The translations under genes were made by a program, and so were the position numbers. From the IMG/VR virus record IMGVR_UViG_3300028048_000043: 64,000 bases of DNA. One strand, written 5' to 3'. Below the pieces are notes generated by a model. The model made no database searches. It was not told the DNA's origin and worked only from the letters and a program-made list of their open reading frames with translations. Source of the DNA: a virus (lineage: Duplodnaviria > Heunggongvirae > Uroviricota > Caudoviricetes). Shown here in pieces: positions 565-28,020 of this stretch; position 1 is the stretch's first letter, and each line of letters begins with the position of its first letter.

Positions 565-1680
565 ATGATAGAGAAAGAATCGCAAAGCGGAAACTCCATA
601 ACGTTATATTCTCCAAAGGAGATTAAAGCTCACCTCGACGAATATATTATCGGTCAGGATGAAGCTAAAAAAATCCTTTCCGTTGCCGTATATAACCATT
701 ATAAAAGAATTCTTCTAAATGATAACGCAGAAAACGAATCAGTTACCGTTGAGAAGTCGAACATTCTTATGGCTGGTCCGACTGGGTGTGGGAAATCAGC
801 TATGATTAAATGTATCGCTGATTTTCTAGGTGTACCTTGTTATATAGCTGATGCAACGTCATTGACACAAGCTGGGTACGTTGGAGACGACGTAGAATCA
901 ATTTTGAGCGGTTTACTTAGGAACTGTAACTATTGTGTTCCTGTCGCTGAATGTGGAATCATAGCGATTGATGAGGTTGACAAACTCGCAAAGAGAGGCG
1001 CAAGCGAACACATCTCAAGAGACGTTGTAGGAGAAGGTGTTCAGCAGGCATTGCTTAAGATGGTTGAAGGCGATCTTGTAGGTGTTCCACCGCAGGAAGG
1101 AAGAAAACACCCAGACCAGCAGCTTATCTATATAAACACAAAGAATATTCTTTTTATAGGCACAGGCGCGTTTTCAGGAATGGACGAAATCATAAATCGC
1201 AGATTAAATATAAATCGAATAGGGTTTGATACAGGAGTCAGTAAGAGAACTTCGTCAAAGAAAAAAGACTACAACCCATATGATTATATGTGCCAGGAGG
1301 ATTTGAGGTCGTACGGACTTATTCCTGAGTTCATTGGACGATTCCCCATCGTTACAAATATTAACGGTCTTTCTAAAGATGAACTTAAACGAATTCTTCT
1401 TGAACCAAAGAATGCAATTATAAAACAGTTCCAAAGAATGATGGAACTCGATAACATAAACTTTAGTTTCACTGACAAGGCGCTAGATTTAATTGCGGAC
1501 ATTGCCATAAAACTAGGAACAGGTGCAAGAGGTCTTCGTTCGATAATGGAAAACATCTGGACGGAATATGTTTATGAATATTGTGACGATAAACGAGAAG
1601 AAAAAATAGATGTTGTCGTAACCGATAAAGATGTTAAAAAACATCTTAATGAAAGGTTTGCAAAATATATTGAGAAATAA
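565..1680 (+). CDS. clpX: ClpX-like AAA+ unfoldase (lacks N-terminal zinc-binding domain)
   Basis: MAGPTGCGKS Walker A; ADATSLTQAGYVGDDVESIL matches ClpX pore-loop region; sensor/arginine region GARGLRS. Confidence 0.8.
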   Translation: MIEKESQSGNSITLYSPKEIKAHLDEYIIGQDEAKKILSVAVYNHYKRILLNDNAENESVTVEKSNILMAGPTGCGKSAMIKCIADFLGVPCYIADATSLTQAGYVGDDVESILSGLLRNCNYCVPVAECGIIAIDEVDKLAKRGASEHISRDVVGEGVQQALLKMVEGDLVGVPPQEGRKHPDQQLIYINTKNILFIGTGAFSGMDEIINRRLNINRIGFDTGVSKRTSSKKKDYNPYDYMCQEDLRSYGLIPEFIGRFPIVTNINGLSKDELKRILLEPKNAIIKQFQRMMELDNINFSFTDKALDLIADIAIKLGTGARGLRSIMENIWTEYVYEYCDDKREEKIDVVVTDKDVKKHLNERFAKYIEK

Positions 1681-1681
1681 C

Positions 1682-2206
1682 ATGCGTAAGAAAAAGATTT
1701 TGGCGCTTGTTGGAAATAGCGGATCCGGAAAAACAACACTTGGAATAACTCTTACTTCTTTGGATGATAGATTCAACTGGGTTAGTTCATACACAACCAG
1801 ACCGAAACGCCAAAACGAAGTAAACGGAATAGATCACGTGTTTGCGGACGAGAAGGATATGCCGCCAAAAAAAGATATGGTTGCTTATACATATTTTGGA
1901 GGAAATCATTATTGGACCGAGTTTTCTCAATTTGATAAAAATAAGATAAACATTTATGTTATAGATGAAATCGGTCTAGAAGAAATGATGTTGAAATATC
2001 ACGGACTGTTCGATATAAAAACGGTTTATGTCAAGAGAGAAGATACTTCTTCAATTGATGTCGAACGAACAAAGCGAGATCAGGAAAGAAAAACATTTCC
2101 TCAAAATTTCTATGATCTTTTTATTGTTAACGATTATAGTAGCTCGCCTGAGTTTGTTAGCGATGGGTTAAAGAAACTTCGCGATCTTTGTAAAAATTGG
2201 AAATAA
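1682..2206 (+). CDS. guanylate-kinase-family (d)NMP kinase
   Basis: P-loop LVGNSGSGKTT plus TTRPKRQNEVNGIDHVF (GK signature TTRxxRxxExxGxDYxF); start placed at ATG 1682 just after clpX stop. Confidence 0.65.
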   Translation: MRKKKILALVGNSGSGKTTLGITLTSLDDRFNWVSSYTTRPKRQNEVNGIDHVFADEKDMPPKKDMVAYTYFGGNHYWTEFSQFDKNKINIYVIDEIGLEEMMLKYHGLFDIKTVYVKREDTSSIDVERTKRDQERKTFPQNFYDLFIVNDYSSSPEFVSDGLKKLRDLCKNWK

Positions 2207-2223
2207 AATAACAACAATATAAT

Positions 2224-3177
2224 ATGCCTGTAACAAATAAGTTATTTACAGAGGCTTTTAGAGCTAAAACAATTGATGGTTTGGTTTTACCCGACAGAAT
2301 ACGCAACGACGTTTCGCACGGGTTAACACAAAATATACTTCTTTATGGACCGCAGGGCGGAGGAAAGTCTACAATCGCAAGGATTCTTATTGATGGATAT
2401 GACACCCTTCTTTTGAACGGTTCGTCAGAAAACGGAATAGATGTTATTCGAGACAGAGTAGTTTCGTTTGCATCTGCCGTGTCTCTTGAGTTTGGGGCAC
2501 AAAAAACAAAAGTTATCTTTATAGATGAAGCTGATGGTCTTACAACTCAGGCATGGGACGCTTTGAGAGAGACAATCGAGCATTATGCCGATTCAGTAAG
2601 ATTCGTGTGTACCTGTAATAAGATTGATAAAATTCCTGCTCCTATTCAGTCCAGATTCAATTGCGTTCCGGTGTATCCAATAAACAAAGCTGAAGAAGAC
2701 TTTATGTTTGCTGGGTATTGTGCATATGTAGGGAAAATCCTTACGGGCATCAAGGTTTCATATGATGAAGAAACTCTTCAACAGTTTGTTAGAAACAGCT
2801 TCCCGGATATGCGATCAATCCTGAACGATATTCAGAAACTGTATATCCAAGACGCCAAGGAACTTAATAAGGAGAGTTTGGTAAAAACGTTTGATTGTTC
2901 TGATTTGTTTACGTTAATCGTAACCGGGAATAGTCCGGTTGAAAATTACAAATTCATAATGACAAACTACTCGACTTCTCCAGACGACGCTCTTCTTGCA
3001 ATATCAAAGTCGTTTGTCGATTTCTTAACATTGAATTACCCGCAGCTTTCTTCAAAGATACCATACATCATTATCACAACAGCCGAATATGCTTCTCAGA
3101 TGCAAACTGCACCAGATAAAGTTTTGGTTCTTTTGGCATGCTGCTTTAAACTTCAAGAAATAATCAGAAATGTCTAG
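2224..3177 (+). CDS. clamp-loader small subunit (RFC/gp44-like AAA+)
   Basis: LLYGPQGGGKST Walker A, FIDEADGLT Walker B, SRF (SRC-like) motif. Confidence 0.7.
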   Translation: MPVTNKLFTEAFRAKTIDGLVLPDRIRNDVSHGLTQNILLYGPQGGGKSTIARILIDGYDTLLLNGSSENGIDVIRDRVVSFASAVSLEFGAQKTKVIFIDEADGLTTQAWDALRETIEHYADSVRFVCTCNKIDKIPAPIQSRFNCVPVYPINKAEEDFMFAGYCAYVGKILTGIKVSYDEETLQQFVRNSFPDMRSILNDIQKLYIQDAKELNKESLVKTFDCSDLFTLIVTGNSPVENYKFIMTNYSTSPDDALLAISKSFVDFLTLNYPQLSSKIPYIIITTAEYASQMQTAPDKVLVLLACCFKLQEIIRNV

Positions 3178-4333
3178 AAAGTTAAATTTGGTAATAGACT
3201 TCAATAATATGGCTATGAGGTCTATGTTTACTTGCCAATATATGGGAGAAGGATCCGTAAAGAATTTTGACACTGAAGAGGAATGCAAAATTCTTGTTAG
3301 AAAGCTTGCAACTGATATGTGCCAGATTATAAAGATGTTTTCACCGGACAGGGTTATTGTTGCATGTGATACAAAGTCTCCATGGAGAACAGGATTATAC
3401 AAAGATGTTGACTATAAAGGAACTAGAAAACATGACGAAGATAAGAACTGGACAAACATTTTCTCTGCTTTGACAGATTATAAAGAAATACTTAGAAAAA
3501 ATAATTTCATTGTAACAGAGATAGAAAACGCTGAGGCTGATGATTTGGCTGCGCTTTGGGTGCATGAATTATTTGGGAACCGCAACGAGTCTGTAATCCT
3601 TGTATCGTCTGATAAGGACTGGACTCAGTTGGTTGCGTTTGGAACGTGCGACGCGTTTGTAGCCTGTTATAACCCAATATCAAATAATAAAAACCAGAGA
3701 AAGTTTTATGTTGAATCTGGATTTGAAAACTGGATAAATTCCCCGGACACTGTTGATATCTTTTTCAGTAACTACGATGAGTTAAAAAAGAAACTCAAAG
3801 AGATTATGATGTCAAACACAAAAGTTTTCAAGGAGATAATAGATCCAAACAGAGTTCTAATAGATAAGATTCTGTGTGGAGATGATGGGGATAATGTTCC
3901 GTCGTTCTACGAGTATTATAAGAGTGGTAAAAAAGCTAGGCTAACTTCACTTAAAGCTAGTCATCTCATAGAAAATCTTTCTATCCATGGTGTTGGAGGT
4001 CTTAATGAATCTGCAAAGGTCGGAACGCTGAAGACAGAAATGGAAAAAGAAATGAAGGTCGAGATTCCTGTTGATTTTGAAGACAGACTTATGCGACAGC
4101 GCAAACTTGTCGAACTTAACAGAGACTTATTTCCTGGTTCAATAGTGGATAGTTTCGATATTCATTCAAAGTATATTGATTCCGCCGGAACAGTGTCCAG
4201 CAAAATCACAATGCAGGAATTATTGAAGGATACAAAATTTATTGATAAAAATTATAATAAACCGAGAGAAAACAGTATATTTGATGATGTAAACGCATTA
4301 AATAGGTTTTCTAAGGCACCTAGTTTATTTTGA
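3170..4333 (+). CDS. 5'-3' exonuclease / flap endonuclease (phage RNase H-like)
   Basis: N-terminal LVIDFNNMAMRSMF and VSSDKDWTQLV resemble PolI 5'-nuclease/FEN acidic motifs. Confidence 0.65.
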   Translation: MSRKLNLVIDFNNMAMRSMFTCQYMGEGSVKNFDTEEECKILVRKLATDMCQIIKMFSPDRVIVACDTKSPWRTGLYKDVDYKGTRKHDEDKNWTNIFSALTDYKEILRKNNFIVTEIENAEADDLAALWVHELFGNRNESVILVSSDKDWTQLVAFGTCDAFVACYNPISNNKNQRKFYVESGFENWINSPDTVDIFFSNYDELKKKLKEIMMSNTKVFKEIIDPNRVLIDKILCGDDGDNVPSFYEYYKSGKKARLTSLKASHLIENLSIHGVGGLNESAKVGTLKTEMEKEMKVEIPVDFEDRLMRQRKLVELNRDLFPGSIVDSFDIHSKYIDSAGTVSSKITMQELLKDTKFIDKNYNKPRENSIFDDVNALNRFSKAPSLF

Positions 4334-4899
4334 TGGCAAAGAAGAAAAATGAAATATCAGTTTCAAACGAGAGTATAGATTTGATAAGTGTCCTTTCTGG
4401 AACAGATGGATATAAAATTTCCCAGAAACCAGAAAAGGAGCAAACTGTCAAATCCGTACCTTATTTTGAAATATGCGACGCCGTGTTTAAAGGGAACAGA
4501 TATTATATAAACAACATGACGGATCAGCAGGCTAAACAGAACATATTTATGGTTCTGAGAAAAGTAGCCATAGGCTATCCAGAGATAGCCAACGCTTTCA
4601 ACAGACAAAATGTTAATGCGATGGATGTCATTAAATTTTTGTCTGTCTTGCTCCCTAGCAGAGGGTTTCCAAGTTGGTATTATACTAAAACGTCTCAAAA
4701 GAAAGAGATTGCATCTAAAAATGAAATTACAAAAAACGATATTACCGTATATATACAACACTATGGAATAACAAGAAAGGACTTTGAATCGGCTATGAGG
4801 ATATTTCCAGAAGAAACCATAAAAGATGTTATAGATTTAAGAAACTTTATTAAAAATTCAAATAGCACTAGAAATGAAAAAGACACTGATAACGAATGA
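4330..4899 (+). CDS. hypothetical protein
   Basis: 189-aa ORF, start overlaps upstream stop (ATGA). Confidence 0.45.
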   Translation: MMAKKKNEISVSNESIDLISVLSGTDGYKISQKPEKEQTVKSVPYFEICDAVFKGNRYYINNMTDQQAKQNIFMVLRKVAIGYPEIANAFNRQNVNAMDVIKFLSVLLPSRGFPSWYYTKTSQKKEIASKNEITKNDITVYIQHYGITRKDFESAMRIFPEETIKDVIDLRNFIKNSNSTRNEKDTDNE

Positions 4900-5386
4900 T
4901 ATCATAAAGCTTGTTAAAAGCTCAAAGGGTGAGATTAAAGAGTACGATTTGGACCGGTACATTCAGGTTACTGTTGGTAAGATAACAATAACCAAGGGGG
5001 TAGGTTCAAAGCCAGTCTTGAATCTTGAAAGCGGGTGCGATCAAGAATATATGATGTTGTGGAATAACGACATCGGTAGGTTGTTTCTCAATGAAATAAA
5101 AAAGGATAATCCTAAAGTTTATGAGTTGATCGACGACAAGTTCAAAGCTCTGTTGGTCCTCGCGGACGAAGATGAGTATGGAGAGTTTGCATCTAAAAAT
5201 TTCTTACACGTGACATTTGGAGACAACAAGTATACGATAATCAAGGTTGTTCGTCATAATGAAAATTACAGCACCATTGAGCGCCATAATGATTATTTCG
5301 GAGATATAGACGGAGAATCTATCGTGGATGATGTTAAAACGGAAGAAGATGAGCCAGAAAAATTAAAAGAAACTGAATTATTCTAA
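4874..5386 (+). CDS. hypothetical protein
   Basis: 170-aa ORF, acidic C-terminus. Confidence 0.45.
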   Translation: MKKTLITNDIIKLVKSSKGEIKEYDLDRYIQVTVGKITITKGVGSKPVLNLESGCDQEYMMLWNNDIGRLFLNEIKKDNPKVYELIDDKFKALLVLADEDEYGEFASKNFLHVTFGDNKYTIIKVVRHNENYSTIERHNDYFGDIDGESIVDDVKTEEDEPEKLKETELF

Positions 5387-6027
5387 TGCTTCAGAAACTT
5401 GATGTAAACTTCATATTAAACATGCTGCAAGAACAGAAGGTTGCTCTATTTGAGTCACTTCTTTCTTCAACAGGAAGATCTGGTATAGACGGCGTTATAA
5501 AATTTTTAAAGGAAACCGATTTTTATAGGGCACCGGCGTCATCGAAATACCATTCAAATTATGATAGCGGTCTCCTTGACCATTCTCTGATAGTTTATTC
5601 GCTTCTTTGTGATTTGAAAGAGATGGTCGAAAAGATTGATCCAGCTGCCGTTTCTAACATTTCGGATGACAAAATAATTATATGTTCTCTTTTACATGAT
5701 GTATGTAAAACATGTTTCTATAAAAAGGCTATAAAGTGGAAGAAAAATTTAGATTCGACATGGATGCAGTATGAAGGATATGATGTAGAAGACACGTTCC
5801 CAATCGGACACGGGGAAAAATCAGTCATAATGTTGCAAAACATCGGTCTTACACTTTATCCGGACGAAATGCTTGCAATACGATATCATATGGGATTTTG
5901 GGGAGATTCGTCGAATGATGTAAAAATGTCTCAGCAAAACGCAACAAAAATGTATAGCATTGTTCCTCTTTTACAGATGGCTGATTTTACAGCATCAACG
6001 ATAATTGAGAAAGAAATAAAACACTAA
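5386..6027 (+). CDS. HD-domain phosphohydrolase
   Basis: H...HD metal-binding signature (HSLIVYSL ... LLHDVCK). Confidence 0.55.
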   Translation: MLQKLDVNFILNMLQEQKVALFESLLSSTGRSGIDGVIKFLKETDFYRAPASSKYHSNYDSGLLDHSLIVYSLLCDLKEMVEKIDPAAVSNISDDKIIICSLLHDVCKTCFYKKAIKWKKNLDSTWMQYEGYDVEDTFPIGHGEKSVIMLQNIGLTLYPDEMLAIRYHMGFWGDSSNDVKMSQQNATKMYSIVPLLQMADFTASTIIEKEIKH

Positions 6028-6067
6028 ATGCATAATAAATATCTAATAAAATAAAACGCAAAAAAAT

Positions 6068-6865
6068 ATGTTCGATCTATTTACAAAAATTGGAAGTATT
6101 TTCTCCAGCGTTCTTGAAGACGCCCTCAGTTCAGTTAATTTTGAAGACTCTATTGTCACCGATGAAAATGGGACTCATATCAAAGCATCATTTAGAGATG
6201 ACATTTTTACGGATGAAGAAAAAGATGAGCGTATAAAAGGAACTCTCAATTTCTGGAAAGGCATAATAAAAATTGGAAACGTTTCTAATCCGATTAAAAT
6301 TTCCATAAAGTTTAATGATGAAACTCCGGTTGAGTTTGAGTTCGATGAATCTTTGAACGATTTCGTTAAGATTGAAAATCCGGATACCCCAGTAAACGTT
6401 GTTGCTGAAGAAGACAGGGAATTGGATAAAAAGGACACTGTAAGCGAACCAGAATATGATATAAACAACGCTCCGAATACTGCGCACTCAGATATCAATG
6501 AAAAACAAATGACGCTTGCAGAACAGATTAAAACCGAACTTCTTTCAGACACGAAGGACCCAGATGATGAAGATTACACGGCGGAAGATATTGCCGACGA
6601 GTTTTATAAAGAAGTCAAGTCTGATAACTATAATATTTTCTCGGACGACAATGATAAAGTTCTCGGTATATCAATAGAAGCTGATCAGTTCTTTCCTGAG
6701 TTTGATTCGCTTACAAACGATGCGGATGTTATTCTTGAAGATTCTGAACTTCTTGAAGACTTCAAGGAAATCGTAAAAACAAGATACGGGTTTAGTGACG
6801 TTACTTGGGAAAGAAAGGATTATGGTTCGGGATATGTAACTATTCAGTTTAACTTTATATTTTAA
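6068..6865 (+). CDS. hypothetical acidic protein
   Basis: 265-aa ORF, D/E-rich. Confidence 0.45.
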   Translation: MFDLFTKIGSIFSSVLEDALSSVNFEDSIVTDENGTHIKASFRDDIFTDEEKDERIKGTLNFWKGIIKIGNVSNPIKISIKFNDETPVEFEFDESLNDFVKIENPDTPVNVVAEEDRELDKKDTVSEPEYDINNAPNTAHSDINEKQMTLAEQIKTELLSDTKDPDDEDYTAEDIADEFYKEVKSDNYNIFSDDNDKVLGISIEADQFFPEFDSLTNDADVILEDSELLEDFKEIVKTRYGFSDVTWERKDYGSGYVTIQFNFIF

Positions 6866-6873
6866 TTTAAATT

Positions 6874-8775
6874 ATGAACAAAATTATCGGTATTGACCTC
6901 GGCAGCACAATGAGTGCTGTCGCGGTTGTTGAACAGGGGAAGCCACAAATTATTGTGAACAATGACGGAGACAGAACTACACCGTCCGTCATCGGGTACT
7001 CTAATGATGGAGAGGTAAAGGTTGGAAATTCAGCAAAGCGTTCAGCCGTTGTCAATCCAAAAACTACTATTGAGGTTATCAAAAGATTCATTGGTAATTC
7101 CTGGAAGAGATCCTCAAAATATGCAAAGGATTTTTCATATGATATTGTTGAGGGTCCAAATGACACAATTCGTGTAAAGATAAACGGAAAGGAATACACG
7201 CCTCAGGAAATTAGTGCAGAGGTTCTTCGCAAACTTAAAAAGTCAGCGGAAGACTATCTTGGTTCAGAAGTCAAGGAAGCCGTTATAACTGTACCGGCAT
7301 ATTTTGACGACCAGCAGAGAACAGCAACAGTTGAAGCTGCAAAAATAGCCGGACTTGAATGTAAGAGAATCATAAATGAGCCAACGGCGGCCGCTCTTGC
7401 ATTTGGTCTTGACAAACTTGACAAGGACATGAAGATTCTTGTTCTTGATTTGGGCGGAAGTACAGCTGATGTTTCAATCCTTGAATTGGGAAACGGTGTA
7501 TTTGAAGTGGTCAGTACAAACGGAGATATGATTCTTGGTGGTCGAGATCTCGATCAGTTAATTACGGATTGGATTGTCGACAAAATAAAAGAACAGTGCG
7601 GCGTCGATGTAAAGAAAGACCATATGGCATATCAGAGGGTTGTTGAGGCAGCAGAGAAGGCAAAAATAGAACTTTCTAATGTTACTTCAACAGACATCAA
7701 TCTTCCATATTTGACTGCTGTCGACGGAGTTCCTCAGCACTTTATGTCAAGTCTCACTCGCGCTCAATTCGAAAATCTTGCAGAGGGTTTCATTAAAAAG
7801 GTTGAAAATCTTTGTAAAGGTGCTTTGGAATCGGCAAAAATGAACATCAACGATATAGACGAAGTTCTTCTCGTTGGAGGAACAACAAGGGTTCCTAAAG
7901 TTCAGCAATTCGTTAGAGATTATTTTAAGAAGGAACCTAACAAATCCGTTAATCCGGATGAGGCTGTTGCTCTCGGAGCTGCAATTCAAGGTGCTATCCT
8001 TGCTGGAGATCTCGGAGACGATATTGTTCTTCTTGATGTCACTCCTCTAAACTTAAATATAACAACTCTCGGTGATGTTGCTACAACAATGATTGAAGCA
8101 AACACTACTATTCCTGTTTCGAAGGAACATATTTTCACAACAGCTGAAGATAACCAACCGGCAATAACCGTTGTCGTTACTCAGGGAAACAGAAAGATTG
8201 CAAGTGAGAATAAAAAGCTCGGAGAGTTTAATCTTGATGGAATAGCTCCTGCTAGAAGAGGTGTTCCGCAGATCAAAGTAAAATTTGATCTTGATACAAA
8301 TGGAATACTTAAAGTTACTGCAACCGACACGGCAACAGGAAAAGAACAGTTTATAAGAATAGAGGGGTCATCTAATCTTGATGATTCTGAAATCGACAGA
8401 ATGAGGAAAGATGCTGAGTTGCATGAAGCAGAAGATAAAGCAAGAGTTGAGAAGCAGAATAAACTTAACGACGCAGAATCTCTCATATTTGCCACAGAGC
8501 GTCAGTTATCTGACCAAGGAGACAAGATCTCCGACAATCTGAAGAAAGATATAGCAGAAAAATTAAATGCCTTAAAAGCTGTTTATAACGTTAAACCTGA
8601 GGATAGGGACATCGATGCTATTGAAAAGGCAACAAACGTTTTAAGAGAAGCTGTATACAAGGCTAGTGAGGAACTCTATAAATCTTCTTCAACTGATTCG
8701 TCTTCCGGACAGAATCCATTCTCGAATTTTGATTTCGCAAATGGTGGATTTCCTGGTGGAAATCCGACGAAATGA
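6874..8775 (+). CDS. dnaK: Hsp70 chaperone DnaK
   Basis: [40 protein letters not shown] signatures; 633 aa with GGFPGG C-terminus. Confidence 0.9.
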
Positions 8776-8796
8776 TAACATAAACACTGTTTGTTA

Positions 8797-8830
8797 AATC
8801 CTGACTGTTTGCACAGTCAGGATTTTTCTT
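8797..8830 (+). terminator. rho-independent terminator hairpin after dnaK
   Basis: perfect inverted repeat AATCCTGACTG...CAGTCAGGATT followed by TTTTT. Confidence 0.6.
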
Positions 8831-8848
8831 ATAGGATAAATAGAATAT

Positions 8849-9100
8849 ATGCTTTTTAAATTAAAACTTATAATCCAAGGATGGTTTAATTGGATTCTTG
8901 ATAAAGTGTCTGACATTAAATATAAAGAGTATTTTGATGCCAGATATGAGATTTGTAAATGCTGTGAGCATAATAAGTTTGGAATCTGTGATTGTTGCGG
9001 ATGTGTGCTTAAAGCAAAAACAAAAGCAGAAGAATCCGAATGTCCGGTTGGAAAATGGAAAACAATAAAGGAAACGTTAGATGAAAAAGTTAAAGCTTAA
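8849..9100 (+). CDS. Cys-rich small protein (putative Zn-binding)
   Basis: CKCCEHNKFGICDCCGC...ECPVGKW. Confidence 0.45.
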   Translation: MLFKLKLIIQGWFNWILDKVSDIKYKEYFDARYEICKCCEHNKFGICDCCGCVLKAKTKAEESECPVGKWKTIKETLDEKVKA

Positions 9101-10937
9101 TGTGCATATCCTTTATCCTGGTGGGTTTAAACCGATACATGAGGGTCACATGTTTCTTATTGAAAACGCAATAAAGTCCGTTAAGGCTACATTTGGTCCA
9201 AGTAACGTGGATCCGAAGGTTCATATTATATTGTCGAATAAAAGCAGAGACGGTGTTACAGCCGAAACGACAGCAAGATATCTTGACAGTATAGGTATAG
9301 GAAAATATGGAATAGATTACATTATTTGCGACGGAAGTCCTGTCAGAAAAGCTTATAATATTGTAGCAACAAAAGAATACGGTAACGGATACTACTACAT
9401 ACTGTCGTCGAAGAAAGATTCAGATATAGATCGTTGTATGGATTTTGTTGATGCGTTTAAGATTGGTGGAAAGTATTATACAGAAGGCGCAACTGTGATG
9501 TACTGCCCTCCGTCAGCACCAATGAAATATGCATGGAGGAATGACGATAAGAACGGAGAAATTATATCATCTAGAATCGTTCGTCAGGATGCAATAAACA
9601 GCGATTATGAAAACTTTGAAAAGGCGTATTTGCATCCATATTTTTCCGATAAAACTCTTCTCGGTCGTTATTATATATGGATAAAGAGAGATATGGAGAA
9701 TTCTGGATTGTTTGAAGGCGCTGCCGCTGGGCACATAAACCACCCATATGAAGAAGATTACCTAACGTTTGCAGAAATAAGCGATATGATACGAGATGTA
9801 TTTTCCGGATCCATAGAAGATATGACTGAAAAGATTGACGGTATGAATATAATGGCGTCCGTTGATACACGAGGGAGAGCAATTTTTGCAAGAAACAAGT
9901 CGCAGTTAACCGATTATCCAATGACACTCGATGACATACGTTCAAACAAGCAGAGTTGGTCGAAAGGAATATTGGCTTCGTTTGTTAAAGGAGCAGAAAC
10001 AATCGCTGCGATATTCAAGAATATAAAAGACGCGAAGTCAGTTTTCAATGAAGACGATAAGTTGGATGGAGTTAGATATAGAACGTGGTGCAATTTTGAA
10101 ATAACTGATACAGCTTCACAAAATGTTATTCCATATACTGAGAATATAATATCATTAAATGGTTTTATTACGGCTTGTCTCAATTACGGGATAGACAAAG
10201 AGGGAGAGTGGGAAATATTTGAGCCTCACGAATCAAACGTTAACAGGATTAAACCTGTTGTTATTGATGCGATGAAGAAGACAAATGAAACTTATTTTAA
10301 GGTAAAACTCCCTCAGAATGTATTCTTAGCTCAGGCTGAAGCTGAGCGCGAAGTCATATTAAGAAAATATCAAGAAATGCTTGAGGAACTTTGTGAGGAT
10401 TATAATCTTACGATGGATAGCAATATTAGAATGTTTAAGCGCGAATCTCTTAAAAGATATCTTGTAAACAACGGGTTTAGTGACTTCAGTGATGAAGAAA
10501 TAGATCGTATGGCTGAAATGGTTTTAGGACAAATTCGCCTTTCTATAATGGCTTTTCCTGAAAACGAAAGAAAACGAATAGTAGATTTCAGAAAAAATAA
10601 GGAAAAGGATGTTCTAAAGAGAATAATGCTTCCAATCGATAAATTCTTTATAGACTTTGGAAACGATGTAATCAAATGCTGTAAAGGCATTCAGAATGAA
10701 GGAAATGAAAAAGAAATCGTAGCAAAAATAAAGAAAGGTGTAGTCGACGCAATCGATTCTATTACCAAATCAAACGATGAGCGGAAAATCGATAAACTCG
10801 AATATCTTCTTATACGATTAGGAAATGATCCAGAGATTTATCCAAGCGAAGGTATAGTTTACACTTATAAAGGAAGGAAATATAAGCTGACTGGAAGTTT
10901 TGCGGCATTGAATCAAATAAAGAATCTTCTTAAATAA
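9081..10937 (+). CDS. HIGH-motif nucleotidyltransferase domain fused to putative KxDG ligase (Rnl2-like) domain
   Basis: N-terminal PGGFKPIHEGH matches (T/H)xGH cytidylyltransferase-superfamily motif (NMNAT/PPAT-like); downstream EKIDGMNIMASVD resembles Rnl2 motif I KIHGTN. Confidence 0.5.
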   Translation: MKKLKLNVHILYPGGFKPIHEGHMFLIENAIKSVKATFGPSNVDPKVHIILSNKSRDGVTAETTARYLDSIGIGKYGIDYIICDGSPVRKAYNIVATKEYGNGYYYILSSKKDSDIDRCMDFVDAFKIGGKYYTEGATVMYCPPSAPMKYAWRNDDKNGEIISSRIVRQDAINSDYENFEKAYLHPYFSDKTLLGRYYIWIKRDMENSGLFEGAAAGHINHPYEEDYLTFAEISDMIRDVFSGSIEDMTEKIDGMNIMASVDTRGRAIFARNKSQLTDYPMTLDDIRSNKQSWSKGILASFVKGAETIAAIFKNIKDAKSVFNEDDKLDGVRYRTWCNFEITDTASQNVIPYTENIISLNGFITACLNYGIDKEGEWEIFEPHESNVNRIKPVVIDAMKKTNETYFKVKLPQNVFLAQAEAEREVILRKYQEMLEELCEDYNLTMDSNIRMFKRESLKRYLVNNGFSDFSDEEIDRMAEMVLGQIRLSIMAFPENERKRIVDFRKNKEKDVLKRIMLPIDKFFIDFGNDVIKCCKGIQNEGNEKEIVAKIKKGVVDAIDSITKSNDERKIDKLEYLLIRLGNDPEIYPSEGIVYTYKGRKYKLTGSFAALNQIKNLLK

Positions 10938-10970
10938 AAAGAAAGGAACATTGCTGTTCCTTTCTTTATT
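10938..10970. terminator. bidirectional hairpin terminator between convergent genes
   Basis: AAAGAAAGGAACA ttgc TGTTCCTTTCTTT. Confidence 0.6.
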
Positions 10971-11418
10971 TATAGAATACGTCATCTTTCCATAGAAGAT
11001 ATCTTGAAACGTAATCCATGTCTTCTTCTTTTGGTCGATTCTCTTTTTCTTCTTCAGCTTTTTGTTCAGCTTCTATTCTTTTCAGCATAGCCTCTTTATT
11101 TCTGGCATACATATCTTCGAGATCTTTTCTTTCTTTATCTGATAATCCAGCTATAAAATGTCTTTCTTCTATGTAATCGTACGCCTGTTTAAGTCGTTCT
11201 ATTCTTGTAGGATACATAAACCACCAGTCTATTTCTTCCTTAGGCATCAATGTGATTCCTCTATAATCTTTGATTGGTTTAATGTTCATTGTGTTTTTTA
11301 CAATGTCATACATATCATCACGATCCATCTTTTTATAGATTTTCTCGCGGAATAATGTAAGAACGGCAGTGACCGGATAATATAGTCTGTTGTTGTAATA
11401 TAAATGGTTAAGCTGCAT
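10966..11418 (-). CDS. hypothetical protein
   Basis: 150-aa ORF, coiled-coil/charged C-terminus. Confidence 0.45.
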   Translation of the reverse strand: MQLNHLYYNNRLYYPVTAVLTLFREKIYKKMDRDDMYDIVKNTMNIKPIKDYRGITLMPKEEIDWWFMYPTRIERLKQAYDYIEERHFIAGLSDKERKDLEDMYARNKEAMLKRIEAEQKAEEEKENRPKEEDMDYVSRYLLWKDDVFYK

Positions 11419-15137: not shown

Positions 15138-15962
15138 ATGAAATCATTAAAAGAAATCACAACAAATCTGAAGTATCGAGTAAGAAACTTTCTTCTCTAT
15201 AAAATCGCGCTTCCTATCATTAGATGGTGCGGTAAAGACTCTAACTATGTTAAACACTACGATAAAGAAATAAGCATTATCAGAAAAGGAGAACCTGGAT
15301 GCGGAATCGACGGTCTTATGGATTCCCAGGTAAAGGACCTTCTCTATCTTCTTTCTACGCAATGGGATAGCGGATTTAGTATACATTTCAAACGCCGCTA
15401 TTTCGATGCAGCCGCAAAGTTCGGTCTGCTTTCTCCTCTTACTTTTAAAGACGATGAGTTCGGTGAGTCTTATATGAGTGGACGAAATGATTTGACCGCA
15501 CAGAATAAACGACTATCGTCCGTGTTCAAATCAAACGGAAAGGTATATGATATCGATGCATTCTCGATTCGTACGTCTTTGCAGCACAACATTGACACAA
15601 AAGAAACCGTAGAGGGAAACGGTCTTACTTGGTCAGGTGGAACCTGGGTTCATGATAAAGAATCTGGAAAATGGTTCTTTATGTCAAGAGGATATATTGA
15701 CACGAAGAAAAACAAAACGTTTATGGGTGAGAATCACGTAGTTGTTCCAACAATCGAGATTATAGACAACAACTGTGGTACAGGAACGTTTATTATGAGT
15801 ATAACAGATAAAGATCTTATTCCAAACGAGTTCTACAAGGATTATACGATTGATTCAGTTTTTGATACAGAACGCCGGAGTGACGAACGGCTTAAAGAGG
15901 ATCTTGAATTCCTTGATTCACACAACGATGAGTTCGTCGAAGTGCTTAAAAAGTTAAGATAA
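15138..15962 (+). CDS. hypothetical protein
   Basis: 274-aa ORF. Confidence 0.45.
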   Translation: MKSLKEITTNLKYRVRNFLLYKIALPIIRWCGKDSNYVKHYDKEISIIRKGEPGCGIDGLMDSQVKDLLYLLSTQWDSGFSIHFKRRYFDAAAKFGLLSPLTFKDDEFGESYMSGRNDLTAQNKRLSSVFKSNGKVYDIDAFSIRTSLQHNIDTKETVEGNGLTWSGGTWVHDKESGKWFFMSRGYIDTKKNKTFMGENHVVVPTIEIIDNNCGTGTFIMSITDKDLIPNEFYKDYTIDSVFDTERRSDERLKEDLEFLDSHNDEFVEVLKKLR

Positions 15963-16643: not shown

Positions 16644-17309
16644 ATGGAAGAATCTGTTAAAAATACATCCGATGTGATGCAATTTAGGGAGAATTATTTC
16701 CTTGATTTGAATTCTGTTCTTATTAAGTTCAGAAAAGAACACGGGATGAAAGACGCAAAGGAGCTTATACCTTATCTTAGACGAATGCTCCATTGGTACG
16801 AAAACATGGGTCATATTGTTCTTGATGATAGCATTGAGAAACCATCAACGTCAAACGATTCTTTAAAGAAGAGTCCTGAAGGAAAACTGATAACTTGTGG
16901 TGTTATCATCAAGGATGTCAATGACAAAATTCTTGCTTGTGTTCCAACAGGCTCGTCTTATTATTTTGATATACCGAAAGGGTGCGCCAATAAAGATGAA
17001 GACGATTTGGATGCAGCTATAAGGGAATGCCGCGAAGAAACCGGTCTTCGTTTGGATTATTTTAGAAATGAAATCGAAGATCTAGGCGTTTACAAATATC
17101 TCAAACATAAAGATATTCATTTATTCAGGTTAAAACTTCCGTTTGTTGCCTTAGATACTTTTGTACATACTCTTAAATGTACATCTTATTTTATGGATAA
17201 AGATGGAATTGAAAAACCTGAAGTTTCTGGTTATAGGGTTGTTGATCCAAAGACATGTGAGAACTTTAACACATCTATGACAGAACTAATTAGAAAATTC
17301 GCAATTTAA
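16644..17309 (+). CDS. Nudix hydrolase
   Basis: Nudix box GCANKDEDDLDAAIRECREETGL (REx2EExGU). Confidence 0.65.
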   Translation: MEESVKNTSDVMQFRENYFLDLNSVLIKFRKEHGMKDAKELIPYLRRMLHWYENMGHIVLDDSIEKPSTSNDSLKKSPEGKLITCGVIIKDVNDKILACVPTGSSYYFDIPKGCANKDEDDLDAAIRECREETGLRLDYFRNEIEDLGVYKYLKHKDIHLFRLKLPFVALDTFVHTLKCTSYFMDKDGIEKPEVSGYRVVDPKTCENFNTSMTELIRKFAI

Positions 17310-25524: not shown

Positions 25525-26007
25525 ATGTATGAAGGCGTTATAGAAAATAACTTTCTTGATCATTTCGAGGCAGACGGAAAATTGTGGTCAATTTTAAAAA
25601 GAAAAATAGACGGTTCAGTCGTTTTGAAAAACGGTTCGCAATATTACGATACCGTAGTGTGTTCATATGATGGAAAAGAATTGGATTTTCGTCTTTGTAA
25701 GGAATCTTCCATAAAACGCCTGTCTCCGTTTTCTGATACCGATTTTGTGCCAACATTCTATAAAGTAATTGATTTCTTTTCGTATGAGTTTAAAAAAGAA
25801 GAAATCATAGGAAACACGGCCGACGAGATATTGCTTCTGAATCCTGAGTGTATATTCTGCATCTGCGAAAAGAATCACTATGAACCAATTTTTTACATAG
25901 TTAATGGAAGGGTTGTCGCGTATTCACACGATAAAGTAAACGGAGATTGTCTTCTCATGACAAAGGAAATGTATGAAAAAATGAAGAATGAACATGCTGA
26001 TTTCTGA
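25525..26007 (+). CDS. hypothetical protein
   Basis: 160-aa ORF. Confidence 0.45.
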   Translation: MYEGVIENNFLDHFEADGKLWSILKRKIDGSVVLKNGSQYYDTVVCSYDGKELDFRLCKESSIKRLSPFSDTDFVPTFYKVIDFFSYEFKKEEIIGNTADEILLLNPECIFCICEKNHYEPIFYIVNGRVVAYSHDKVNGDCLLMTKEMYEKMKNEHADF

Positions 26008-27316
26008 TATAATTGGTTCAATAAATCAACCGTACGTCGTAAAGCGAGATTACGACGATAGTGTTTTTCCGCCGGAAATTCTTTCTGGTGGAGAAGCGTT
26101 CATGAGGTTCGCCATATCATATGACGGAGATTTGTTATTTTGTCCAGATAAGTATAATCAAAATAAAACCGTTTTGTTTTTTACACAACAAACGATGTGT
26201 AAAAAAAATATTGGAAGACCGAGCCACGTTCGATACGGAGGTAACATCGGTCCATATTATCTCGCAGCGTTTGAGTATTATGATGAAGATACGAGATATT
26301 TTATACTTGATGGTGATACTGATGATGAGGCGATTGAATTATTTCCATTGAGAAGATTATATGATAATTTATACATATTAACAATCGACGGAACATCTTA
26401 TTCTGATAATCCAAACGAATTCTTAATAACGTCCGAACCAAGACTTCTGTATATAGGGCACTCTATAGAAGTTAAGGATTGGAGCGCGGTTAGAACAAGG
26501 ATTGTGCAATTAAAATCAACAACGTTAGTTGGAGACACGGTATATAATTATTTTGACGGCAGAAAACTATGTTTCAATGATTGGTCTAAAAATAGTTCAT
26601 ATGTGGTTGTTCCTTTTGAACAGTTTGGTGGTCTTCTTTTTAGAAAGAAAGATGAGAATTTTTATCAAATCTATGATCCTGGTAGAGGAAAGGTTTTGTT
26701 CGATGGTGATCCCATGCAAATTAAGACTGTCACTCTTAACAAAGACCTAGTTATAAAAGATGTTGATTTTCCTGTAGATCCAAATCATATGAAATTTGTA
26801 AACCCCAATGGTGAAAAATCTGTCCTTGTTGTGAAACGGAAAACAGACGGCAAGATAAATGTGCTGGATAGAGATTCGACAAAGCCTGTGTTCGACGAAT
26901 GGGTTGACGATATATATGAAGCTTCTTCATATTTTGTTGGAAACGGAAGCGGAACGACAAAAATACTTGTTGCTGAAAGAAACGGAATTAAGTACGGTTA
27001 TATAAACGGATCCGTTGTCAGGGGCGATAATTTTGTATATACTAAATGTTGTGGGGGTATTTTTATTATAGCAACGAGAGAAACCGAGAATCAGGAAATT
27101 GTTGTTGATTTATATCAATTCGTACCGTTCCGTTGGGATAAATCATCAGGAAAGGCTGATGGGGTATCTTATGGTCTTCAGGACCTTTGGGTTGATGGAT
27201 GTCATATATTTGGCAAACTACAGAACGGTGTTATTGGTGAGTTCGTACCAAACTCAATATTCAAAACGTTTATGTTTGTTCGAGAGAGTACAACAAAAAT
27301 AAAAGATGATGTTTAA
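25988..27316 (+). CDS. member of (D/R)EWV(D/E) paralog family
   Basis: 442 aa; FDEWVDDIYEASSYF. Confidence 0.5.
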   Translation: MNMLISDIIGSINQPYVVKRDYDDSVFPPEILSGGEAFMRFAISYDGDLLFCPDKYNQNKTVLFFTQQTMCKKNIGRPSHVRYGGNIGPYYLAAFEYYDEDTRYFILDGDTDDEAIELFPLRRLYDNLYILTIDGTSYSDNPNEFLITSEPRLLYIGHSIEVKDWSAVRTRIVQLKSTTLVGDTVYNYFDGRKLCFNDWSKNSSYVVVPFEQFGGLLFRKKDENFYQIYDPGRGKVLFDGDPMQIKTVTLNKDLVIKDVDFPVDPNHMKFVNPNGEKSVLVVKRKTDGKINVLDRDSTKPVFDEWVDDIYEASSYFVGNGSGTTKILVAERNGIKYGYINGSVVRGDNFVYTKCCGGIFIIATRETENQEIVVDLYQFVPFRWDKSSGKADGVSYGLQDLWVDGCHIFGKLQNGVIGEFVPNSIFKTFMFVRESTTKIKDDV

Positions 27317-27332
27317 GCATCATCTTTTTTTG
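27303..27332 (+). terminator. hairpin terminator
   Basis: AAGATGATG tttaag CATCATCTT TTTTTTG. Confidence 0.55.
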
Positions 27333-27664
27333 TTTTCTTCTTCAGCAACAACCTGATGTTCATTTAACAACCTGATGTTCATTCCGTCTCCAGTTGTGTT
27401 TGGTCTTGTTATTATACCTTCTCCAGTTCCACGTTTAGGACAATTGATGCAATCCATACAAGGATTTGTACATATTCCGTTCGGTGCGTAACATGGAACA
27501 GCCATAGTATCCCCACCGGTACCTATCCACGGAAACGTTGGTTGAACAAAACCACGCGACTTTAGTTGTTCTGTAAGATTAAAGATTTCTTCGTCTTTTT
27601 CGATGATTAATTCAATCAGTCTTTCTTTAGGAAAGCGACTGTAATCCTCTTTCGTTAGTTTCAT
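27320..27664 (-). CDS. Cys-rich small protein
   Basis: CYAPNGICTNPCMDCINCPKRG. Confidence 0.4.
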   Translation of the reverse strand: MKLTKEDYSRFPKERLIELIIEKDEEIFNLTEQLKSRGFVQPTFPWIGTGGDTMAVPCYAPNGICTNPCMDCINCPKRGTGEGIITRPNTTGDGMNIRLLNEHQVVAEEENKKR

Positions 27665-28020
27665 TTATTATGTCGTTTATTTTTTAGTTCAAAATCATCT
27701 TCATCTATATATATATATTTTCCCAAAGTTTTTTGTTCCTGTAAACGCGAGAAAACAAAATCTGCTTCTTTTTTCGAAAATATAGCGTTTCCGTTTTTAT
27801 CTCTTTTACTGAAAGCAACAGTCATAGTGTAAACTTTTGCGGATATTACGGAGTTGTCGCTGTAGAAAAGATTACAAGGTTCATATGACATTCCGTTTTC
27901 ATCAAACTCCCAAGCCATAAACGGAACCATAATAACTGGAAATTCGGATGTTTTTCCAATTAGTTTAAATATCTCTTCTCTAATCTCGTCAAGAGACATA
28001 GAATGTATCTTCGCGCCCAT
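27661..28020 (-). CDS. hypothetical protein
   Basis: 119-aa ORF. Confidence 0.4.
   Translation of the reverse strand: MGAKIHSMSLDEIREEIFKLIGKTSEFPVIMVPFMAWEFDENGMSYEPCNLFYSDNSVISAKVYTMTVAFSKRDKNGNAIFSKKEADFVFSRLQEQKTLGKYIYIDEDDFELKNKRHNK

Follow-up and report, generated by a model that had tools for sequence, protein, structure and literature searches.

What might a tailed jumbo phage do with a protein that joins an HxGH nucleotidyltransferase to an RNA-ligase-like enzyme? We examined this question for a gene in a 64,000-nucleotide stretch of DNA (hereafter, the window) from IMG/VR virus record IMGVR_UViG_3300028048_000043 (Caudoviricetes). The gene, which encodes an HxGH nucleotidyltransferase fused to an RNA-ligase-like covalent nucleotidyltransferase, is an open reading frame (ORF) of 618 amino acids (aa) on the + strand at 9081–10937, exactly where an initial sequence-only reading of the window had placed it. 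Our preferred answer, to which we would give a little less than an even chance, is that the protein is a bifunctional enzyme for coupled RNA-end sealing, in which both halves belong to a single pathway and act on a nucleic-acid end that carries a phosphate, most likely that of an RNA broken during infection.

The first half, domain 1 (aa 1–205; 9081–9695, +), is an HxGH (HIGH-class, PPAT/NMNAT-like) nucleotidyltransferase. Enzymes of this class transfer a nucleoside monophosphate (NMP) from a nucleoside triphosphate onto a phosphate-bearing acceptor and release pyrophosphate. The sequence-only reading had taken PGGFKPIHEGH (aa 13–23; 9117–9149, +; HxGH = H20-E21-G22-H23) as the HxGH signature of the cytidylyltransferase-like superfamily, and we agree: H23 is invariant, an ISxTxxR-type second signature is present as IISSRIVR (aa 161–168; 9561–9584, +; R168 invariant, S163 conserved in at least 90%), and both profile and fold comparisons match, although the domain extends over about 205 aa rather than the approximately 170 first proposed. 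In a 48-sequence alignment, H23, P87, K112, R168, and Y183 were invariant in this domain, which also has extra conserved basic residues (K17, R56, K112, R118, and R153).

Searches with the single sequence returned little. The Pfam search recommended with that reading did find CTP_transf_like, yet at 18.2 bits (cut-off 21) and over aa 11–41 only, and it found no RNA ligase family; a PDB search gave PPAT at an E-value of about 0.2, NCBIfam gave only the generic cyt_tran_rel model for domain 1, and a PHROGs search with the whole protein gave nothing meaningful. Relatives do exceed the CTP_transf_like cut-off (P0006, with a PF01467 match, and others at 30.3 and 31.8 bits). A family profile of domain 1 matched PPAT (E = 6.9e-9) and archaeal NMNAT (3e-4) in PDB over the first ~80 residues only. 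In the full-length AlphaFold model (predicted local distance difference test score, pLDDT, 89.6; predicted template modelling score, pTM, 0.70), Foldseek matched domain 1 to NadD, PPAT, and NMNAT (PPAT/NaMNAT/NMNAT) at probability 1.0, with template modelling scores normalised to the target of 0.6–0.69 (PPAT), so that the structural comparison with NMNAT proposed at the outset indicates a shared Rossmann-like PPAT/NMNAT fold. Domain 1 thus has the HxGH and ISxTxxR motifs and the whole-domain fold in common with PPAT (CoaD), NadD, NadM, and NMNAT, whereas its sequence likeness to PPAT/NMNAT is limited to the first ~80 residues, it has FKP (Lys in place of Asp/Gln) where they have FDP/FQP, and its scores (12.8–17.7 bits; P0006, 34 bits or less) lie far under the PPAT, NMNAT, and NaMNAT equivalog cut-offs (103–450). 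Domain 1 truly belongs to the HxGH superfamily, yet no named enzyme is its orthologue.

The second half, domain 2 (aa 206–618; 9696–10934, +), is a covalent lysine nucleotidyltransferase module of the RNA-ligase type, for which Pfam, NCBIfam, PHROGs, and PADLOC hold no matching model. Bare HxGH and KxDG motifs are weak evidence by themselves: in composition-preserving shuffles of the 618-aa protein, [HT].GH occurred by chance in 2.5% and K.DG in 24%, and a second, non-conserved KLDG lies at residue 327. What lifts the match above chance is the invariance across the family, the ISSRIVR signature, the PPAT profile match, and the fold matches of both domains.

We counted motif conservation in 250 aligned family modules. 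Motif I is TEKIDGMN (aa 249–256; 9825–9848, +), with K251 in 249 and D253 and G254 in all 250; K251, within EKIDGMNIMASVD at aa 250–262, is the predicted AMP-accepting lysine. A motif Ia-like FARNK follows (aa 269–273; 9885–9899, +; R271 in 249/250, aligned with R55 of T4 Rnl2). The motif III region, WCNFEI...NVIPY (aa 336–352; 10086–10136, +), contains E340 and Y352 (both 250/250) and N348 (249/250), motif IV is SEGIVY (aa 589–594; 10845–10862, +; E590 in 250/250, G591 in 249/250), and motif V is KYKLTG (aa 600–605; 10878–10895, +), with K602 in every module and T604 and G605 in 249. Upstream of motif I, a family-specific Gly/His element, GAAAGHINHPYE (aa 213–224; 9717–9752, +; H218 in 245/250), follows the consensus EGGxAGHxxHPxE 33 residues ahead of K251 and often forms the extreme N-terminus in proteins with the reverse domain order. 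In a narrower set of 28 sequences with 22–44% identity, twelve invariant columns fall on ligase motif positions.

Motif IIIa is less clear. The candidate strand, IISLNGF (aa 356–362; 10146–10166, +), is placed by spacing only, and its position 360 (codon 10158–10160), at motif III +20, has the spacing of the adenine-stacking residue in Trl1 and Rnl2. This position is His in 244/250 modules and Asn in the window protein; among its five nearest relatives four have Asn and the fifth Ile, and all other members have His. Should the assignment hold, nucleotide binding may be different in the window clade; the invariant Y352 could stack on the purine instead. Apart from this candidate residue in the window clade, domain 2 has, by its motifs, a predicted catalytic set that is complete and invariant.

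To map the motifs, we used T4 Rnl2 and Rnl1 reference sequences checked against the T4 genome and PDB entry 2c5u; the hhalign alignments were collinear but non-significant (E = 0.013–0.16, with and without an inserted domain described below) and serve as a motif map only. With Rnl2, TEKIDGMN...ARNK fell on REKIHGTN...AKRT, pairing K251 with K35 and R271 with R55, both at +20, and, with the insert removed, SEGIVYT fell on AEGYVLK (E590 = E204). With the insert likewise removed, NFEITDTASQNVIPY fell on NFEFVAPTNRIVLAY of Rnl1 (E340 = E159), and SEGIVYT-YKGRKYKLTG on IEGYVAVMKDGSHFKIKS (E590 = E227, G591 = G228, K602 = K240). The sequence-only reading had allowed that its KIDG match might be fortuitous and motifs III–V lacking; E340, E590-G591, and K602, each conserved in 249–250 of 250 modules and collinear with T4 Rnl1/Rnl2, indicate that the match is real and that these motifs are present.

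The predicted structure supports the same assignment. An AlphaFold model of aa 205–618, built from 65 sequences and no templates (pLDDT 92.7, pTM 0.88), contains the nucleotidyltransferase core fold, with two antiparallel beta-sheets around a nucleotide pocket, and this fold matched RNA ligases first, ahead of DNA ligases and capping enzymes (comparison figures: Naegleria Rnl5, 8.9; Trl1, 8.4; T4 Rnl1, 8.2; T4 Rnl2, 8.1; T. brucei REL1, 8.1; archaeal Rnl3, 7.5; DNA ligases, about 6; capping enzymes, 5.5). On this model, domain 2 is predicted to have an RNA-ligase-type covalent nucleotidyltransferase core. Since sequence methods gave non-significant matches, the ligase assignment rests on the predicted structure together with the conservation pattern; a 28-sequence profile of domain 2 retrieved no ligase from PDB sequences, and the proteins that it did retrieve were helical or designed ones aligned to the insert. 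This insert is an all-helical domain of ~200 aa (about aa 384–580; 10230–10820, +), delimited by secondary structure, between motifs IIIa and IV; a fold search with it gave no convincing match, and weak, inconsistent PADLOC matches on it (SIR2, Csx19, and others) were disregarded. The chain ends 16 residues past K602 with no domain appended after motif V, and the models of the 618-aa protein have no OB domain or DNA-binding latch. A helical insertion inside the core is, as modelled, a novel topology.

The RNA-ligase clades Rnl1 to Rnl6 are set apart by domains appended to a shared core (PMC6379707), and because none of these clade-defining domains is present, domain 2 falls outside all six. 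The resemblance to Rnl2-type ligases that the sequence-only reading proposed stands only in part: the core is ligase-like, but the evidence favours Rnl2 no more than it favours Rnl1, Rnl5, or Rnl6, and the all-helical C-terminal domain that follows motif V in Rnl2-type enzymes is absent, with the 200-aa insert present instead (hhalign E = 0.013–0.016 only). In the comparison with T4 Rnl2 and kinetoplastid REL1, motif I reads EKIDGxN against EKIHGTN, with the motif Ia Arg at +20 in both, and motif IV reads SEGIV against AEGYV. T4 Rnl1, phage-encoded like the window gene, has motif III NFEF..NRIVLAY against NFEI..NVIPY and motifs IV–V EGYVAVMKDGSHFKIKS against EGIVYTYKGRKYKLTG, with a short hairpin of 12–13 residues in both. 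Domain 2 shows no significant sequence likeness to Rnl1 or the Trl1 ligase domain (Rnl6) (E = 0.15). Rnl1 and Rnl6 carry an appended domain after motif V, whereas the window protein carries its helical domain between IIIa and IV; their second motif V Lys is replaced by the invariant T604; the invariant GH element upstream of motif I is extra relative to Rnl1/Trl1; and neither Rnl1 nor Trl1 has an HxGH partner, Trl1 having kinase and CPD domains instead. The hallmarks of Rnl1, Rnl4, and Rnl6, which combine an N-terminal sub-domain of the Rnl1 type with an appended C-domain particular to each clade (PMC6379707), are missing from domain 2, and so are the LigA modules (domain Ia, OB, Zn-finger, HhH, and BRCT) from the 618-aa protein. 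Rnl5, the nick-sealing RNA ligase of Naegleria and Deinococcus, is defined by an N-terminal OB-like domain (PMC6379707), where the window protein has an HxGH Rossmann-type enzyme; identity between them is 10%.

We then asked how constantly the two modules occur together. A word-indexed search found only six relatives, with source contigs of 314.7 kb and 328.9 kb, and an exhaustive profile search found 2,442 cluster representatives (50% identity) at E ≤ 1e-3 and 962 at E ≤ 1e-30. P0006 has the same two modules in reverse order, and its HxGH module aligns with that of the window protein. Among the best 154 representatives, 39 show the window order (HxGH then KxDG), 81 show KxDG then HxGH, and 34 have no HxGH module of the window subtype; 13 of these 34 carry another HxGH-like motif directly downstream, GRFQPMGxHH or GRFNPPTxGH, which reach 20.6 to 31.8 bits against CTP_transf_like. 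In 222 of the 254 retrieved members (87%), the same chain also contains an HxGH-type domain; three subtypes are represented, and each of the two orders occurs. The fusion, which the sequence-only reading called non-standard, is indeed uncatalogued, but it is common in uncultured viruses.

We also examined five KxDG proteins without an HxGH domain in the same polypeptide, and in four of them (L038, L039, LR756500, and L040) an HxGH gene lies directly beside the KxDG gene. In L038 and L039, HxGH-module copies of 237 and 196 aa abut the KxDG gene in the window order (E = 6e-32 and 5e-33 with a hidden Markov model of the HxGH module). In LR756500, the next ORF ends with a CTP_transf_like domain (31.8 bits); reading the start of that ORF as a second, degenerate ligase module (SENLDGST) was unsupported (E = 0.16). 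In L040, a convergent 204-aa gene beside the KxDG gene reads KPIHAGH...ISGTKMRR; at 8001–11380, this free-standing gene is flanked by that of the KxDG protein P0144 on one side and by a NUDIX gene on the other, the only truly adjacent Nudix we saw. No HxGH gene was detected in the fifth case, L036. Because the modules are fused in both orders, because three HxGH subtypes have been recruited, and because the genes are adjacent when split, we consider that the two modules work together. Taken from gene architecture, the case for a strict evolutionary coupling of the HxGH and KxDG modules, which we describe as obligate, is strong.

Some family members carry further segments. A third conserved module of ~260 aa (STGIN..LTT..QRxSFRxH..TGRN..DYLxTN..YFDKFE), with no Pfam match, occurs as a C-terminal fusion (32 of 254 proteins) or as the product of the following gene (L008–L025, e.g. 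L020 10053–10838; P0029, P0030, P0032, P0033, and P0048) and is absent from the window. In long KxDG-then-HxGH proteins (P0021, P0026, P0037, P0043, P0057, P0154, and others), Gly-rich segments of the form E(M/I)SAMxGGAVxG recur, and acidic low-complexity linkers are followed by a conserved (D/N)YLL tail at the C-terminus; these segments and tails may be processing or targeting signals. Candidate HAD (P0035), SprT-like (P0146), and ParB-like (P0028) accessory domains were below threshold and not relied on, and a GNAT domain in relatives was likewise below threshold.

The family is effectively restricted to viruses, mostly uncultured ones. The ligase-like module was present in three of 50,697 deposited phage genomes, namely Microcystis phage Mel-JY01, which is the one cultured carrier, and two uncultured phages (462 kb and 484 kb). 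The Mel-JY01 orthologue, annotated as 'cytidylyltransferase like protein', has His at position 360. IMG/VR added 19 further viral loci, and 185,579 species-representative genomes gave four matching loci only, all on contigs of 2–21 kb from metagenome-assembled genomes, plausibly mis-binned viral DNA. The HxGH module occurs alone in fifteen Lak megaphage records, in which tblastn detected no KxDG module; Lak copies have 31–33% identity, as in the stand-alone 207-aa HxGH protein of Prevotella phage Lak-A2 (L002, 946–1569).

In the window, the gene lies in what its sequence suggests is a two-gene transcription unit bracketed by hairpins. Upstream is a terminator-like hairpin with a 13-bp stem and a T tract (8796–8825, +) on the 3' side of an Hsp70 gene, followed by an 83-aa Cys-rich (CxxC) ORF (8849–9100, +; DUF6171 at a sub-threshold 23.9 bits, cut-off 27) whose end overlaps the start of the two-domain gene by 20 nt. 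Downstream, a palindromic hairpin with a 13-bp stem and flanking A and T tracts (10938–10967) begins one base past the stop codon and is shared with a convergent gene; the convergent genes beyond it include an amidase. The pair of genes is retained in L007, a 61%-identical relative whose whole region is syntenic, and the 83-aa ORF was not found beside family members other than those of the window and L007. The Hsp70/DnaK gene directly upstream (6874–8775, +; 733 bits) is full-length, and the strong hairpin separates it from the two-domain unit.

The sequence-only reading had also placed a Nudix hydrolase gene (16644–17309) in the same module. That gene is real (32 bits), but a distance of 5.7 kb, with three convergent genes and six others, separates it from the hairpin-bracketed unit, so that gene order and terminator hairpins rule it out as a module member; its retention in L007 is no sign of coupling either, because the whole region is syntenic. 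It belongs to a metabolic run that is odd for a phage (16171–18887, +), comprising YqeY (131 bits), the NUDIX gene, a 156-aa ORF, and an F420-0:gamma-glutamyl ligase/CofE-like protein (125 bits). A Tad3-like inhibitor of type I Thoeris (PF25185, 66 bits; 15138–15962, +) is encoded 4 kb downstream of the two-domain gene.

How, then, might the two halves serve coupled RNA-end sealing? K251 would attack the alpha-phosphate of ATP to form an enzyme–AMP intermediate, the AMP would be handed on to a 5'-phosphate end, and attack by a 3'-OH would then seal the break. The 200-aa helical insert may act as a substrate-recognition domain, the role of the appended C-terminal domains in Rnl1, Rnl2, and Rnl6. 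Domain 1 might make or regenerate an adenylyl donor, such as a dinucleotide of the nicotinamide adenine dinucleotide (NAD) type, for the ligase half, or alternatively might act directly on the terminal phosphate of the same substrate. We infer RNA as the probable substrate because RNA ligases outrank DNA ligases, because there is no OB domain, and because 2H and Thg1 genes occur in some of the genomes. Thg1-family proteins are 3'-5' RNA polymerases and tRNA 5'-end repair enzymes, and the window phage encodes one of 277 aa (PF04446; 35901–36734, −). In L038, a 2H phosphoesterase (34.1 bits, cut-off 27) lies 3 kb upstream in the same gene string. That string (1052–6158), which resembles an RNA-repair cassette, runs from the 2H gene through a 55-aa ORF, an 802-aa protein, the HxGH gene, and the KxDG gene to gp32. 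The first part of the 802-aa protein is a homologue of the domain that P0043 carries as an N-terminal fusion (BLASTP 4e-11); this domain is at most a candidate Pol-beta nucleotidyltransferase, having a Pol-beta-like GS..SGDIDIAL motif but no Pfam or PDB support. Known repair sets of RNA ligase, RlaP (Pol-beta), and 2H follow the same logic of a ligase travelling with a nucleotidyltransferase, although RlaP belongs to the Pol-beta class, which extends 3'-OH ends, and the partner in the window family to the HxGH class, which adenylylates phosphates.

Several observations weigh against this interpretation. We found neither a polynucleotide kinase nor a phosphatase next to the gene, the 64-kb window has no tRNA genes, and the Thg1 gene is 25 kb away. 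In T4-like relatives, the gene lies near terminase and portal genes and not RNA-repair genes, and Acb1, an anti-CBASS protein, is a further, weak match of the 2H protein in L038. The candidate adenine-stacking residue of motif IIIa is Asn, not His, in the window protein. No sequence method gives significance for the ligase assignment (hhalign, E = 0.013–0.16; PDB profile search, empty), and Foldseek gave no match for domain 2 at E ≤ 1e-3, although ligases nonetheless predominated in its list. Furthermore, we know of no ligase pathway that requires an HxGH enzyme, and for this reason the mechanism by which the two halves would be coupled is conjecture.

Of the other explanations, one that we think unlikely, but hold as seriously as any alternative, is that the protein combines independent counter-defence activities, an NMN adenylyltransferase that rebuilds NAD+ after the action of host NADases and a ligase that reseals RNA, co-selected as in polyvalent proteins. 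Two of the three HxGH subtypes have NadM-like GRFQP/GRFNP motifs, P0006 and the Mel-JY01 protein have NMNAT models among their best partial matches in NCBIfam, and the HxGH gene of L040 is followed by a NUDIX gene; in the window, the Tad3-like Thoeris inhibitor and the NUDIX protein are encoded within 7 kb. Relatives also have polyvalent-type accessory domains (SprT-like, ParB-like, and GNAT, with weak scores) and virion genes nearby (cf. PMC5512222). However, a coupling in which 87% of members are fused, with three subtypes, both orders, and adjacency when split, is stricter than the loose shuffling of polyvalent proteins, and the 16–34 bits scored against NMNAT/PPAT models, whose equivalog cut-offs are 103–450, as well as FKP in place of FDP/FQP, speak against an NMN adenylyltransferase. 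An HxGH nucleotidyltransferase in a large phage with a NUDIX gene nearby (window) or beside it (L040) recalls NadM-Nudix and NARP2-type systems, but NadM-Nudix has a Nudix fusion, whereas the window protein has none and its NUDIX gene is outside the transcription unit. NARP2-type NAD+ reconstitution has a fused or co-transcribed Nudix and a NAMPT partner, neither of which applies here, as no NAMPT or phosphoribosyl pyrophosphate (PRPP)-type partner was seen near the gene or across the annotated window. Conversely, a ligase-like fusion partner is found only in the window protein and not in those systems, and a survey of jumbo phages records HIGH-nucleotidyltransferase fusions to Nudix or kinase domains only (PMC7824862).

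A somewhat more doubtful alternative is that the KxDG module is a covalent nucleotidyltransferase that joins no strands and instead transfers an NMP to a 5' end in a cap-like manner, to a protein, or to a small molecule, with the HxGH domain making or editing the donor or product. The absence of an appended OB or C-terminal domain, the unique inserted helical domain, and the extra invariant His218 element are all consistent with this view, and it is well established that products of HxGH enzymes, namely NAD, dephospho-CoA, and flavin adenine dinucleotide (FAD), serve as non-canonical RNA 5' caps. On the other hand, motif V keeps the ligase-type Lys, the motif IV–V hairpin is like that of T4 Rnl1, and the literature that we searched contains no precedent.

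We judge it improbable that the enzyme seals DNA nicks or ends in connection with genome replication or packaging. The window begins within the large terminase gene, 8.6 kb upstream of the two-domain gene, T4-like relatives have the gene 2.5–5 kb upstream of terminase and portal genes, and it adjoins gp32 and UvsW in L038 and L039. Nevertheless, proximity to packaging genes is weak evidence in large phages, RNA ligases outscore DNA ligases in the fold comparison, and the protein has neither an OB domain nor a DNA-binding latch, its chain ending 16 residues past motif V. Finally, a fortuitous likeness to ligases, with the C-terminal 413 residues forming a non-enzymatic helical or structural domain, might be argued from the frequency of K.DG in shuffles (24%), the non-conserved KLDG at 327, and the lack of any library or PDB sequence match, but it is very improbable given the twelve invariant columns at ligase motif positions in 28 sequences of 22–44% identity and the RNA-ligase fold match of a highly confident model, together with conservation over 250 modules.

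Elsewhere in the window, the cumulative GC skew peaks at ~26000–28000, where the main coding strand changes from + to −, and a WDGH-domain protein (PF25311; 45295–46239, −) and a radical SAM protein (PF04055; 47726–48565, −) are encoded amid a long run of small unannotated ORFs.

Targeted literature searches, whose coverage left out one key review, found no description of an HxGH/RNA-ligase-like fusion, and the architecture is absent from surveys of viral NAD–ADP-ribose systems (PMC9503650) and of polyvalent proteins (PMC5512222). As the family is absent from Pfam, NCBIfam, PHROGs, and PADLOC, its members are annotated as 'hypothetical' or, misleadingly, as 'cytidylyltransferase-like'. Domain 2 is a candidate for a new RNA-ligase superfamily clade whose partner enzyme is also new: the HxGH class is a partner used by no known ligase pathway, and the helical domain inside the core gives a topology different from those of the six clades. 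A bolder proposal, which we regard as an outside prospect, is that the window protein is the founding example of a seventh, virus-only RNA-ligase-type clade, defined by the inserted helical domain and an obligate HxGH partner, with a chemistry undescribed for ligases; this might be RNA sealing that draws on an NAD-type dinucleotide which the HxGH domain synthesises locally, or possibly the post-transcriptional addition or removal of a 5' adduct of the NAD or dephospho-CoA type on RNA.

Modules that are coupled this strictly in evolution usually share a substrate or an intermediate, and the recurrence of the pairing in protein clusters of uncultured viruses, many hundreds of them, suggests that nucleic acid, probably RNA, is repaired or modified in a two-enzyme step that has yet to be described. 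The cultured carrier, phage Mel-JY01, makes the idea testable. If coupled RNA-end sealing is true, phage RNA repair or counter-defence would gain an end-processing step not described before, and the family could offer a new ligase reagent.

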